Assembly: GCF_003018255.1 (NCBI RefSeq)
Contig: NZ_CP027440.1
Length of the DNA: 64,000 nt
Reading direction: 5' to 3' (one strand)
Source: Escherichia coli
GTDB lineage: Bacteria > Pseudomonadota > Gammaproteobacteria > Enterobacterales > Enterobacteriaceae
Under the pieces are notes generated by a model that was not told where the DNA came from, searched no databases, and saw only the letters and a list, made by a program, of their open reading frames with translations. Position numbers and translations under genes: made by a program. This document shows, piece by piece, positions 15,471 to 46,620 of this stretch; within the stretch, counting starts at the first letter, position 1, and every line of letters starts with the position of its first letter.

Positions 15471-18400
15471 ATGACTATGTTCCAGTATTACAAACGATCA
15501 CGGCATTTTGTTTTTTCAGCATTTATTGCTTTTGTTTTTGTCTTGTTATGCCAGAACACGGCGTTTGCGCGGGCGTCATCGAATGGTGATCTGCCGACAA
15601 AAGCGGACCTGCAGGCACAACTTGACTCACTGAATAAACAAAAAGATCTTTCTGCTCAGGACAAACTGGTGCAGCAGGATCTGACAGATACATTAGCTAC
15701 CCTCGATAAAATCGATCGCGTAAAAGAAGAGACAGTTCAGCTACGGCAAAAGGTTGCTGAAGCGCCGGAAAAAATGCGCCAGGCGACCGCGGCGTTAACT
15801 GCACTTAGCGATGTCGATAATGACGAAGAAACGCGCAAAATTCTGAGTACGCTTTCGTTGCGCCAGCTGGAAACTCGCGTTGCCCAGGCGCTGGACGATT
15901 TGCAAAACGCACAAAACGATCTGGCGTCTTATAACAGCCAGCTGGTTTCGTTACAGACGCAGCCCGAACGCGTGCAAAATGCGATGTATAACGCTTCGCA
16001 GCAGCTGCAACAAATTCGCAGTCGTCTGGATGGGACTGATGTCGGCGAGACTGCCTTACGTCCCAGCCAGAAAGTGTTAATGCAGGCTCAGCAGGCGTTG
16101 CTGAATGCCGAGATTGACCAGCAGCGTAAAAGCCTGGAAGGGAACACAGTCTTACAGGATACCTTGCAAAAGCAACGGGATTACGTGACGGCGAACAGCG
16201 CCCGTCTGGAGCACCAGTTGCAGCTGTTGCAAGAAGCAGTAAACAGCAAGCGTCTGACTTTAACCGAAAAAACGGCGCAGGAAGCCGTCTCCCCGGATGA
16301 AGCCGCGCGTATTCAGGCTAATCCGCTGGTGAAGCAGGAACTGGAAATTAACCAGCAGTTAAGTCAGCGTCTGATTACCGCGACTGAAAACGGTAATCAG
16401 TTGATGCAGCAAAACATTAAAGTCAAAAACTGGCTGGAGCGGGCGCTGCAATCGGAACGCAATATTAAAGAGCAGATTGCCGTCCTGAAGGGCAGCTTGC
16501 TGTTGTCTCGTATCCTTTACCAGCAACAACAAACGCTGCCCTCGGCGGATGAACTGGAAAACATGACCAACCGCATCGCGGATTTGCGTCTCGAACAGTT
16601 TGAAGTTAACCAGCAGCGTGATGCACTCTTCCAGAGCGATGCGTTCGTCAACAAACTGGAAGAAGGTCACACCAACGAAGTCAACAGCGAAGTTCACGAT
16701 GCATTATTGCAAGTGGTTGATATGCGTCGCGAATTGCTGGATCAGCTTAACAAACAGTTGGGTAACCAATTGATGATGGCCATTAACCTGCAAATCAACC
16801 AGCAGCAGTTAATGAGTGTGTCGAAAAACCTGAAATCCATCCTGACTCAGCAAATCTTTTGGGTGAACAGTAACCGTCCAATGGACTGGGACTGGATCAA
16901 AGCGTTCCCGCAAAGCCTGAAAGATGAATTTAAGTCGATGAAAATCACGGTGAACTGGGAAAAAGCCTGGCCTGCCGTTTTTATCGCTTTCCTCGCCGGT
17001 TTGCCGCTGCTGTTGATTGCCGGGCTGATCCACTGGCGTCTGGGCTGGCTGAAAGCGTATCAACAAAAACTGGCTTCCGCTGTGGGTTCCCTGCGTAACG
17101 ACAGCCAGCTCAACACACCAAAAGCGATCCTTATCGACCTGATCCGTGCGCTGCCGGTGTGCCTGATTATTCTCGCGGTTGGCCTGATTCTGTTGACCAT
17201 GCAGCTCAACATCAGCGAACTGCTATGGTCGTTCAGTAAAAAACTGGCGATTTTCTGGCTGGTGTTTGGCCTGTGCTGGAAGGTACTGGAGAAAAACGGC
17301 GTTGCCGTGCGTCACTTTGGTATGCCGGAACAGCAGACCAGCCACTGGCGTCGGCAAATTGTCCGCATCAGTCTCGCGTTGCTGCCTATCCATTTCTGGT
17401 CTGTGGTGGCAGAACTTTCCCCGCTGCATCTGATGGATGATGTGCTGGGGCAGGCGATGATTTTCTTCAACTTGCTGCTGATTGCCTTCCTGGTGTGGCC
17501 GATGTGCCGCGAAAGCTGGCGTGATAAAGAGTCGCACACCATGCGACTGGTCACCATTACCGTACTGTCGATTATCCCGATTGCGTTGATGGTGCTGACT
17601 GCCACGGGTTATTTCTACACCACGCTGCGCCTCTCCGGGCGTTGGATTGAAACCGTTTATTTGGTGATCATCTGGAACCTGCTGTACCAGACGGTATTGC
17701 GCGGCTTAAGCGTAGCGGCGCGGCGTATCGCCTGGCGTCGTGCGCTGGCGCGTCGGCAGAATCTGGTGAAAGAGGGCGCAGAAGGTGCTGAACCGCCGGA
17801 AGAACCCACCATTGCACTGGAGCAGGTTAACCAGCAGACGCTGCGTATTACCATGTTGCTGATGTTTGCGCTGTTCGGTGTCATGTTCTGGGCAATTTGG
17901 TCCGATTTGATCACCGTGTTCAGCTATCTGGACAGCATCACGCTCTGGCATTACAACGGCACTGAAGCTGGCGCTGCGGTGGTGAAAAACGTCACCATGG
18001 GCAGTCTGTTGTTTGCGATTATCGCCTCAATGGTGGCCTGGGCGTTGATTCGCAACCTGCCTGGTTTACTGGAAGTGCTGGTGCTCTCGCGACTGAATAT
18101 GCGCCAGGGCGCGTCGTATGCCATTACTACCATCCTTAACTACATCATTATTGCCGTTGGTGCGATGACGGTGTTCGGATCGCTGGGCGTCTCGTGGGAT
18201 AAACTCCAGTGGCTGGCGGCAGCATTATCCGTAGGTCTTGGTTTTGGTTTACAAGAGATCTTCGGTAACTTCGTTTCCGGTTTGATCATTCTGTTCGAAC
18301 GTCCGGTGCGCATAGGCGACACGGTAACCATTGGTAGCTTCTCGGGTACGGTCAGCAAGATCCGTATTCGTGCGACAACGATTACCGATTTCGATCGCAA

Positions 18401-18833
18401 AGAAGTGATTATCCCGAACAAAGCGTTTGTTACCGAGCGTCTGATCAACTGGTCGTTGACTGACACGACTACGCGTCTGGTGATCCGTCTCGGCGTAGCT
18501 TATGGCTCCGATCTGGAAAAAGTGCGTAAAGTGTTGCTGAAGGCGGCGACTGAGCACCCAAGGGTGATGCACGAACCAATGCCGGAAGTCTTCTTTACGG
18601 CATTTGGTGCCAGCACGTTGGATCATGAGCTGCGTCTGTATGTGCGTGAACTGCGTGACCGTAGCCGTACTGTCGATGAGCTGAACCGTACTATCGATCA
18701 GCTGTGCCGTGAAAACGACATCAACATTGCCTTTAACCAGCTTGAAGTGCATCTGCACAACGAGAAGGGCGATGAGGTGACGGAAGTCAAACGCGACTAC
18801 AAAGGCGACGATCCGACGCCAGCGGTAGGGTAA
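15471..18833 (+). CDS. mscK: Potassium-dependent mechanosensitive channel MscK
   Basis: 1120-aa product with signal peptide, long coiled-coil periplasmic domain and C-terminal MscS-like channel domain. Confidence 0.95.
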   Translation: MTMFQYYKRSRHFVFSAFIAFVFVLLCQNTAFARASSNGDLPTKADLQAQLDSLNKQKDLSAQDKLVQQDLTDTLATLDKIDRVKEETVQLRQKVAEAPEKMRQATAALTALSDVDNDEETRKILSTLSLRQLETRVAQALDDLQNAQNDLASYNSQLVSLQTQPERVQNAMYNASQQLQQIRSRLDGTDVGETALRPSQKVLMQAQQALLNAEIDQQRKSLEGNTVLQDTLQKQRDYVTANSARLEHQLQLLQEAVNSKRLTLTEKTAQEAVSPDEAARIQANPLVKQELEINQQLSQRLITATENGNQLMQQNIKVKNWLERALQSERNIKEQIAVLKGSLLLSRILYQQQQTLPSADELENMTNRIADLRLEQFEVNQQRDALFQSDAFVNKLEEGHTNEVNSEVHDALLQVVDMRRELLDQLNKQLGNQLMMAINLQINQQQLMSVSKNLKSILTQQIFWVNSNRPMDWDWIKAFPQSLKDEFKSMKITVNWEKAWPAVFIAFLAGLPLLLIAGLIHWRLGWLKAYQQKLASAVGSLRNDSQLNTPKAILIDLIRALPVCLIILAVGLILLTMQLNISELLWSFSKKLAIFWLVFGLCWKVLEKNGVAVRHFGMPEQQTSHWRRQIVRISLALLPIHFWSVVAELSPLHLMDDVLGQAMIFFNLLLIAFLVWPMCRESWRDKESHTMRLVTITVLSIIPIALMVLTATGYFYTTLRLSGRWIETVYLVIIWNLLYQTVLRGLSVAARRIAWRRALARRQNLVKEGAEGAEPPEEPTIALEQVNQQTLRITMLLMFALFGVMFWAIWSDLITVFSYLDSITLWHYNGTEAGAAVVKNVTMGSLLFAIIASMVAWALIRNLPGLLEVLVLSRLNMRQGASYAITTILNYIIIAVGAMTVFGSLGVSWDKLQWLAAALSVGLGFGLQEIFGNFVSGLIILFERPVRIGDTVTIGSFSGTVSKIRIRATTITDFDRKEVIIPNKAFVTERLINWSLTDTTTRLVIRLGVAYGSDLEKVRKVLLKAATEHPRVMHEPMPEVFFTAFGASTLDHELRLYVRELRDRSRTVDELNRTIDQLCRENDINIAFNQLEVHLHNEKGDEVTEVKRDYKGDDPTPAVG

Positions 18834-18889
18834 TAACCAAAGGGGGCGACATTTAGTTGCCCCGAGATTACTAACAAAGTGCGCGTTGT

Positions 18890-18995
18890 TCATGCCGGAT
18901 GCGGCGTGACCGCCTTATCCGGCCTACGAAACCGCAAGAATTCAATATATTGCAGGAGCGGTGTAGGCCTGATAAGCGTAGCGCATCAGGCAGTT
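18890..18995. repeat. REP/BIME element cluster (two REP units in opposite orientation)
   Basis: gccggatgcggcgtgaccgccttatccggcctac and gtaggcctgataagcgtagcgcatcaggc palindromic units. Confidence 0.8.
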
Positions 18996-19044
18996 TTGCG
19001 TTTGCCCACAATCTTAGGGGACATTTAGCGACCCCATTTATTTC

Positions 19045-19206
19045 TCACTTTTCCGCCTCATCATCGCGCGTTAATTTCTTTTCATAATCGCGTTTTACAA
19101 TATCCAGCGCGCGCAGTACGGTGCGGGCTGGGATCTGATTTTCTTCCAGCAGCACAATCAAATCGACGGCCAGTTTGACATCGTCAGGGGCATTTTCCAG
19201 TGACAT
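19045..19206 (-). CDS. ybaM: Small protein YbaM (DUF2496), 53 aa
   Basis: Hand-translated from the minus strand: [53 protein letters not shown]; below the ORF-track length cutoff. Confidence 0.8.
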
Positions 19207-19219
19207 ACTCTCTCCATTG

Positions 19220-19747
19220 CTAGCGGGTTAAACGCGCTAACCTGTTTTCGATTTTTTCCAGCGCATGGCGGCAGCGTGCCAGGCGCGCTTCATAGGCTTC
19301 CACTTCACGATGCAGCGTTTGCTGTTCCACGAGATCGGTCACCCGCGCCAGGCGGGCTCGACGTTCAGCAACCATCTCACTTAGCCGCCGCTCAAAATCC
19401 TGATGCTGAATACGTTTACGCTGCCAGCGGGCAATTTTCGGTGGCGCACTGTCCCACTCGCGTAGCGACCAGGCTGTGGCTTCACGCGCTATAGCCTCCA
19501 GTTGCGCCGCCAGATGTTCCGCCAGCCAGGCGACTTGCGGCAGCTGTTGCTGCTCAACCGCATGACGAAGCGCAGCCAGATTATCGCCCGCCTCATCGAG
19601 ACAAGCCTGCAGTGTTGTCGCACGAGTCTGAAAAAGATGCCTGTCAAAACGGGCGCTTAGCGTGGCAAATTGCGCTACCGGGGCACAACGCTGACGCAGC
19701 GTAGCGAGCTGTCCTTCCAGTTTTTCCAGCAGCAGGGCGGTTTTCAC
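19220..19747 (-). CDS. priC: Primosomal replication protein N''
   Basis: 175-aa basic helical protein at the conserved position. Confidence 0.85.
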
Positions 19748-46519: not shown

Positions 46520-46620
46520 TTGCCTCTACTCGGCTATATGCCGGATGCGGCGCAAGCGCCTTATCTGGCCTACGATTCGGGCATATTTTGTAGGCATGAT
46601 AAGACGCGCCAGCGTCGCAT
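46520..46620. repeat. REP/BIME elements (two inverted REP units) at the island/ybbJ junction
   Basis: gccggatgcggcgcaagcgccttatctggcctac ... gtaggcatgataagacgcgccagcgtcgcatcaggc. Confidence 0.75.

Follow-up and report, generated by a model that had tools for sequence, protein, structure and literature searches.

Paired hairpins flanking a BIME-1 between mscK and rsmS of Escherichia coli as a probable duplicated terminator

Two related small hairpins bracket a bacterial interspersed mosaic element of the BIME-1 type between the convergent genes mscK and rsmS (ybaM) in a 64,000-nucleotide stretch of Escherichia coli DNA (contig NZ_CP027440.1, hereafter the window). We put at about 0.75 the probability that these hairpins are two copies of one ancestral terminator, i.e. 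a target-site duplication arising from insertion of the BIME-1. The sequence evidence points to the hairpins being chromosomal target lying outside the element and not modules of the repeat, because the hairpin is unique to the locus while the sequence just inside it is dispersed. A 31-nucleotide query centred on the left hairpin was found, in a survey of 5426 complete E. coli genomes, at exactly one place per genome, the mscK/rsmS locus, in 4057 genomes and at none in the rest; a 57-nucleotide query running on into the sequence inside the hairpin found extra partial places, a median of 3 per genome, covering the inner part only. What is dispersed just inside the hairpins is the sequence of the BIME-1 ends, AGATTRCTAAC... 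/ ...CAATCT, and the two such places that were read, yggL/yggN and one near fdhE, have in common AGATTG(C/A)T(A/G)ACAA(A/C)GTGCGCGTT... followed by a repetitive extragenic palindrome (REP) of the Y type. Two of the 4057 left-hairpin matches stand on plasmid-class records, which may be plasmid-borne chromosomal segments or mis-assigned replicons.

The same boundary emerges from an alignment of 12 BIME-1 copies at different loci, which is conserved from (C)AGATTG to ...CA(G/A)TCT and unrelated outside these limits; as conservation begins and ends there, the hairpins fall outside the element. The terminal inverted repeats, AGATTRCTAAC... on the left against ...CAATCT on the right, are imperfect and are kept in the 12 copies. 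An earlier reading of the window's letters (the original prediction) had taken the hairpins to be parts of a composite BIME-like structure. A BIME-1 is indeed present, but the hairpins are not part of a reusable motif, being locus-unique and replaced by different flanks at other copies: further copies of the acatttag hairpin, for which that reading proposed a search, were found neither in the 4057 genomes, with their one place each, nor elsewhere in the window. It had also held that the motif should be given up if it occurred nowhere else and was not predicted to fold stably, and of these the former is the case for the hairpin and the latter for its right copy only.

The hairpin pair and the BIME-1 between mscK and rsmS

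Features of the locus, in window coordinates, are as follows.

15471-18833, plus strand: mscK coding sequence, with stop codon TAA at 18831-18833 (list of open reading frames; mscK annotation in matching E. coli genomes)
18834-18841, no strand: A-rich spacer TAACCAAA (from the sequence)
18843-18863, no strand: left hairpin copy, stem 18843-18850 / 18856-18863, loop ATTTA at 18851-18855
18865-18893, plus strand: BIME-1 left terminal motif AGATTACTAACAAAGTGCGCGTTGTTCAT, kept in 12 BIME-1 copies, with partial matches elsewhere in E. coli
18894-18927, plus strand: Y REP (palindromic unit), an exact match to the REP pattern and an inverted repeat, with a sub-threshold naRNA4 match in Rfam
18928-18962, no strand: L linker of 35 bp with an integration host factor (IHF)-type site ATTCAATATATTG at 18940-18952 (from the sequence; linker kept among BIME-1 copies)
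18963-18992, minus strand: Z1-type REP, in inverse orientation to the Y REP (inverted repeats; alignment of BIME-1 copies)
18993-19014, plus strand: BIME-1 right terminal motif GTTTTGCGTTTGCCCACAATCT, which repeats the left motif imperfectly in inverted orientation, with conservation ending at ...CA(G/A)TCT
19017-19035, no strand: right, decayed hairpin copy GGGGACATTTAGCGACCCC, a direct repeat of 18845-18863
19036-19044, plus strand: T-rich tract ATTTATTTC (from the sequence)
19045-19206, minus strand: rsmS (ybaM) coding sequence, 53 amino acids, with stop codon TGA at 19045-19047 (list of open reading frames; rsmS annotation in matching genomes)

The window is not K-12: its best genome match is E. 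coli strain 2017.09.02CC (99.8%), and K-12 strains show 96.8% identity to it across the stretch. The gene priC lies upstream of rsmS, mscK and priC-rsmS are convergent, and a 211-bp spacer separates the mscK and rsmS stop codons. As originally predicted, the related hairpins flank two inverted REPs within this spacer (18894-18927 and 18963-18992). The left motif, GGGGGCGACATTTAGTTGCCCC, which begins one G before the stem, is at the predicted 18842-18863, while the right motif is one base away from its predicted place, at 19017-19035 and not 19016-19034. GGGGGCGACATTTAGTTGCCCC and GGGGACATTTAGCGACCCC are direct repeats, identical at 15/19 positions without gaps, with a common 9-mer GACATTTAG and a spacing of 172 bp, and of 2000 shuffled versions of the 211-bp spacer just 18 gave a direct repeat this good. 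The pattern GGGG-N0-3-ACATTTAG-N1-4-CCCC has two matches in the window, both of them the hairpins, against an expectation of 0.00.

Calling the two hairpins near-identical was nevertheless an overstatement, since they are related but the right copy has decayed and folds weakly. RNA folding of the left copy gives a stable 8-bp stem on the plus strand (-15.6 kcal/mol, z -5.3; -11.8 kcal/mol, z -3.6 on the minus strand), but the right copy forms only 4 G-C pairs (-6.1 and -7.5 kcal/mol, z about -1.5), equalled by 16-17 of 200 shuffles. The entire spacer region folds better than shuffled sequence (z -3.8 and -3.2), and in the predicted fold GAGATT (18864-18869) and AATCTT (19010-19015) pair to form the base of a long REP-pair stem from which the left hairpin stands separate. 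An Rfam scan of 18500-19400 gave no match for the hairpins, and sub-threshold matches to REP-derived families only (naRNA4, 35 bits where the cut-off is 59.5; ES036).

Judged by its sequence, the element between the hairpins is a BIME-1 (RIP/RIB), a 150-bp imperfect palindrome at about 18865-19014, in the order terminal motif, Y REP, IHF-site linker, Z1 REP and inverted terminal motif. Both REPs align with those of 11 other BIME-1 copies, and the putative IHF site ATTCAATATATTG is a sequence match with one mismatch to WATCAANNNNTTR. Judged by the consensus, the REP at 18963-18992 is taken to be Z1 and not Z2. The locus holds a single Y/Z REP pair, between the two stop codons, and BIME-1 is described as consisting of y and z1 with a long L linker and an IHF site, in single copy (PMC3333891), with a size of ~140 bp and a presence or absence that depends on strain (PMC1187871). 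The element thus belongs to the BIME-1/RIP/RIB class of Gilson, Bachellier and Hofnung, Boccard & Prentki, and Oppenheim, and is in itself an ordinary element of known kind. The MG1655 RefSeq annotation lists no repeat feature in the spacer. The hairpin-adjacent motif AGATTGCTAACAAAG has no further significant copy in the window, which contains this one BIME-1 only; a second Y-type REP lies at 46540-46573, with one pattern mismatch and no BIME-1 linker or terminal motif nearby.

Flanking repeats and empty alleles at other BIME-1 sites

What decides the reading is the pattern at other BIME-1 sites. Metagenome contigs scanned for the junction GTGCGCGTTNTYCATGCCGGATG gave 120 stretches from about a dozen loci, and at each BIME-1 site the left flank was compared with its own right flank, the right flanks of other sites serving as control. 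A direct repeat between own flanks was present at 6 of 10 distinct sites, five of which gave z of 5.5 to 8.1, unequalled by any non-cognate pair. The repeated segments at these six sites are terminator-like stem-loops that abut the element ends and have a sequence unique to each site. Their loops have the same orientation in both copies at 6/6 sites, showing the repeats to be direct and not inverted, and on this ground the hairpins were rejected as outer arms of the BIME's own inverted repeat. The duplicated segments are 20-24 bp long and dyad-centred, with the outermost 2 bp excluded where the arms are long.

At four of the sites E. coli also provides an empty allele, which has exactly one terminator where the filled allele has two (junctions are marked by a slash).

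yqjF/yqjG: empty AAAAAACGAGGAGGAAGCTCCTCGTTTTT (K-12); filled ...CTCCTCGTTTC / AGATTG...CAATTTT / AAAACGAGG...; duplication 24 bp
yvcK/uvrB: empty ACGAAGCCGGAAGAATATTCCGGCTTCGT; filled with one copy on each side; duplication about 23 bp
mltA/tcdA: empty AGGGTGAGGGGTAACCTCACCCTTTTT (strain CD306); filled with two copies (K-12); duplication 20-22 bp
yhaH/yhaJ: empty TTAAGCACCTTGTAAAAGGTGCTTAA; filled ...AAGCACCTTGTAAAAGGTGCTT / CAAATTG...CAGTCAG / AAGCACCTTGTAAAAGGTGCTT...; perfect 22-bp duplication, the filled allele occurring in two genomes only

The layout at mscK/rsmS, with one copy on each side, is that of the filled alleles. The original prediction was right to connect the hairpins with termination. 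At yqjF/yqjG, E. coli Z0117EC0005 (L210 255-700; L numbers are our handles for the sequences compared) carries a tandem hairpin-BIME-1-hairpin-BIME-1-hairpin array, which shows that a duplicated terminator lets the unit of BIME-1 plus hairpin amplify by unequal exchange. A scan of viral contigs for the BIME-1 junction pattern gave no match.

A second dispersed E. coli repeat, found at a median of 13 places in each genome, is built of two inverted GGGAGAGGG/GGGTGAGGG units spanning ~165-185 bp and is presumably the boxC of older papers. It was seen at L007 1832-2016, L213 296-403, L217 ~119-301 and L218 ~101-277. Its termini, CAGA(T/C)TGCTGACAAAG ... CTTTGTCAGCAAT(C/A)T, are those of BIME-1, and it occupies the space between both mscK/rsmS hairpins in L007 and the yvcK/uvrB site in strain A_5. 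Either BIME-1 and this family have a common mobilisation machinery or cores have been swapped within a common frame.

Spacer alleles at mscK/rsmS and alternative explanations

The full 601-bp test region was matched in 3880 of the 5426 genomes, and in ~1370 the same region spans 431 bp, being 170 bp shorter and having no BIME-1. This short allele, found in ST131 and O157:H7, has a 38-bp spacer with one hairpin, AATAAAGGGCGACAGTGATGCCGCCCTTTATTTTTT, flanked by A- and T-tracts and with folding energies of -16.9 kcal/mol for one strand and -21 kcal/mol for the other. Its left arm and left flank AAAGGGCGACA match the left copy in the window and its T-tract matches the right-copy flank ATTTATTTC, so that it looks as a single ancestral bidirectional terminator would be expected to look; ATTTATTTC would then be the plus-strand U-tract of that terminator and the counterpart of TTTATTTTTT, which follows the short allele's single hairpin. 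The long allele is present in LF82 and NC101 and the short one in ST131, all three of which we take to belong to phylogroup B2. The alleles do not follow phylogroups, which suggests recombination or repeated loss at mscK/rsmS.

E. albertii has the same hairpin-BIME-hairpin arrangement at mscK/rsmS, and the insertion is old, being common to that species and having copies that are now 79% alike. In L007, a divergent Escherichia genome, the two hairpins and these same inverted termini enclose another core. In other Enterobacteriaceae the mscK-rsmS spacer ranges from 0 bp to ~1 kb and contains different repeats or single hairpins. The ~1-kb spacers (Citrobacter, Salmonella arizonae, Klebsiella and Trabulsiella; L013, L014, L032, L051, L058, L062, L063) have an apparent extra open reading frame on the minus strand, of which L044, L049 and L054 contain shorter remnants. 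Around 177 E. coli genomes have the left hairpin without the full-length spacer, and variants of IS621 type may not be rare. In E. coli S3 an IS621 (IS110-family) copy lies inside the Z1 REP of the mscK/rsmS BIME-1 (L004 1818-3095; at about 18966 in the window), with junctions GGTGTAG/ATACTG... and ...ATACAAGG/CCTGATAAG, and a second Escherichia genome (L006) has, after the Y REP, a left IS621 junction identical to that of S3.

Beyond ...RDYEKKL, the adjacent C-terminal tail of RsmS is hypervariable among the Enterobacteriaceae (window 19045-19080; L001/L002 523-560; homologues in L005-L084), and intergenic repeat DNA supplies its coding sequence in several genera (e.g. PSPLPSP and PHPNPLP). 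The tail reads TRDDEAEK with the long allele, QSDETSQSE with the short allele and, as an intermediate, TRDDEAQSEK in E. albertii. Foreign import of the short allele was rejected, given that its RsmS tail is a diverged homologue, with an intermediate in E. albertii, and that the tail is hypervariable across genera.

Several points weigh against a target-site duplication at mscK/rsmS. The repeat there is the weakest of the six (79% identity, z 2.8), being equalled by 2% of non-cognate flank pairs, and the BIME-1 sample is small and biased, deriving from one exact pattern and from metagenome contigs. About half of the BIME-1 sites lack a hairpin on one side or on both. The short allele is not a clean pre-insertion state, because its hairpin loop differs and the adjacent 3' end of rsmS, the last 9 or 10 codons, has diverged (QSDETSQSE against TRDDEAEK); it could be an old excision followed by divergence. 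An empty site with a single ACATTTAG hairpin, searched for with the two hairpins joined as the query, was absent from all E. coli genomes searched. Under the accepted model, REP/BIME mobility depends on RAYT (TnpA-REP, a Y1 HUH enzyme of the IS200/IS605 kind), and a target duplication is not expected (PMC3333891, PMC2817692). The staggered-cut mechanism proposed below, and all of the termination roles, are ones that we infer. Novelty is a further point: the literature on BIME-1, target duplication and REPIN insertion yielded no duplication of flanking hairpins, in a search that did not extend to Gilson 1991, Boccard & Prentki 1993 and Bachellier 1997.

The alternative that survives best accepts the duplication as real and attributes it to host processes, which we consider unlikely. 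In one version, a template switch during replication stalled at the hairpin, the terminator would be copied, synthesis would jump to a BIME-1 elsewhere and then jump back upstream of the terminator; in the other, unequal recombination would exchange alleles with the BIME on opposite sides of the hairpin. Single-sided arrangements, both hairpin-BIME and BIME-hairpin, do exist (yggL/yggN, K-12 yvcK/uvrB and L090), the tandem array at yqjF/yqjG shows that unequal exchange occurs, and the known REP-associated enzyme makes no duplications (PMC3333891). However, the element ends are identical at every site (AGATTG...CAATCT), and the duplicated segment always measures 20-24 bp, with the dyad of the palindrome at its centre, a precision that fits defined cleavage and not jumps by microhomology. 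Recombination between opposite-sided alleles would moreover need both configurations to have pre-existed at six separate loci.

That the hairpins are two independent terminators, one for each convergent gene, which have come to look alike by chance or by convergence on GGGG...CCCC, is very improbable. The identity of 15/19 is modest, G/C-rich stems are to be expected, and ~2% of non-cognate flank pairs do as well; yet the observed repeat is reached by 18/2000 shuffles only, and the part in common is the loop with its neighbours (GACATTTAG), which goes beyond the G/C runs. Each copy also lacks one U- or A-tract, as would the halves of a single bidirectional terminator that had been split, and five other sites are alike, four of them with single-hairpin empty sites. 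It is hardly credible that the hairpins form outer modules integral to a reusable hairpin-REP-REP-hairpin cassette, serving as terminator or insulator: the hairpins do stand symmetrically 1-2 bp outside the REP-pair element, the whole region does fold better than shuffles, and the AGATTG end at yggL/yggN adjoins another hairpin whose CATTTG loop is similar, but the hairpin sequence is found only at mscK/rsmS, conservation in 12 BIME-1 copies stops at AGATTG / CAATCT, and other BIME-1 sites have their own unrelated hairpins, which match the terminator of the cognate empty site.

Proposed insertion, termination and relation to known elements

If the paired hairpins are a target-site duplication, a single bidirectional intrinsic terminator would originally have stood between mscK and rsmS, and integration of the BIME-1 would have duplicated it as a ~21-bp target-site duplication covering the entire stem-loop. 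The strands would be cut ~22 bp apart, symmetrically about the dyad of the terminator palindrome, a target probably recognised as an extruded hairpin or cruciform, and gap repair would then copy the terminator to both sides of the element. The copies would later have diverged to 79% identity, the right one losing its stem. Such a defined cleavage geometry is favoured because constant element ends are combined with a constant, dyad-centred duplication size. Going further, it is possible, at rather less than even odds, that BIME-1s are true MITEs (miniature inverted-repeat transposable elements), perhaps together with the GGGAGAGGG/GGGTGAGGG boxC-like doublets (CAGATTGCTGACAAAG...CTTTGTCAGCAATCT termini), which integrate specifically at intrinsic-terminator palindromes with cuts ~22 bp apart and symmetrical about the dyad, so as to duplicate the whole terminator.

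Insertion would have split the bidirectional terminator into two half-functional units. On the plus strand the left copy lies 9 nucleotides after the mscK stop codon and is not followed by a U-tract (GAGAUUAC). On the minus strand it has the partial U-tract CUUUGGUUAUUA, the U-rich tail formed by the complement of TAACCAAA and of the first G of the left motif (18842), and the corresponding K-12 left hairpin, with a perfect stem and the tail CTTTCGTTTT, passes a simple terminator scan on that strand. The right copy has a U-rich tail on the plus strand and a stem too weak to be called. Neither hairpin of the window is called when the window is scanned for terminators and promoters, and the TERMITe supplements searched hold no transcript 3'-end entries for mscK, ybaM, rsmS or priC.

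Having kept the A-tract side, the left copy would likely be the terminator of priC-rsmS, reached after the transcript has crossed the BIME, and on the plus strand it could act as a protective 3' stem of mscK rather than as a terminator. The right copy keeps the T-tract with a weak stem, and intrinsic termination of mscK there should be leaky. The REP pair would lie in the 3' untranslated region of both the mscK and the priC-rsmS mRNA. REPs have been linked to mRNA stabilisation and partial Rho-dependent termination, and are reported inside numerous bidirectional terminators that serve convergent genes (bioRxiv 10.64898/2026.03.23.713779; PMC3333891). A terminator or insulator role of the hairpins is plausible.

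The published descriptions of BIME-1 that were consulted make no mention of conserved inverted termini (AGATTGCTGAC.../...CAATCT) or of duplication of the flanking terminator, both of which are seen here. As far as we have checked, a terminator-sized target duplication is an undescribed property of BIME-1, though its novelty is uncertain. REPINs, the elements associated with RAYT, are likewise inverted REP doublets with a spacer, forming a long hairpin, non-autonomous and dispersed (PMC3116915, PMC3337134, PMC3333891). Single-strand transposition of IS200/IS605 type involves neither terminal inverted repeats nor target duplication (PMC3333891, PMC2817692), in contrast to the 20-24-bp duplications at the six sites described above. 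These flanking target repeats lower the likelihood of IS608-like movement, but not the status of the element as a REP doublet.

The Correia elements of Neisseria and the ERIC/IRU MITEs are likewise short, non-autonomous, intergenic palindromes with inverted repeats at their termini, in some cases an IHF site inside, and a target duplication (PMC3184786, PMC2229807). Their duplications, however, are short and of fixed sequence (e.g. TA), whereas here a whole stem-loop of 20-24 bp is duplicated, and it is specific to the site. As regards direct duplication of the target, a defining feature of MITEs, it was found at 6/10 sites, four of them checked against empty alleles, and is of atypical size; REPs have been reviewed as lacking the signatures of MITEs (PMC3184786). 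A preference for structured extragenic palindromes at gene ends is also seen in class C group II introns, IS1397 and IS621. Duplication of a whole hairpin is not among the features of these elements that we know of. In CRISPR spacer integration (Cas1-Cas2, with IHF taking part in E. coli) and in casposons, staggered attacks on the borders of a partly palindromic target duplicate the whole target unit to either side of the insert. The likeness to Cas1-Cas2 and casposons would lie in how the insertion works only, as there is no evidence of Cas1 here, the insert is a 150-bp repeat and the targets are terminators.

To our knowledge, the dissemination of REPs and BIMEs has been unresolved since their discovery, and no transposition in vivo has been shown in E. 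coli. The paired hairpins, read as the footprint of an insertion, bear on this question: other BIME-1 sites, where empty alleles serve as clean controls, likewise show a 20-24-bp duplication of the resident terminator, and with target (terminator palindromes), element ends and duplication size all defined, BIME movement becomes testable. The same process would explain why REP repeats lie between stop codons and terminators. It would also rewire 3' untranslated regions, turning one bidirectional terminator into two half-terminators around a module that contains REPs and an IHF site. If BIME-1s are indeed MITEs of this kind, REP doublets of E. coli would spread by structure-guided double-strand integration and not by the duplication-free single-strand route of RAYT, and every insertion would yield a spare copy of a terminator, free to decay or to be reused.

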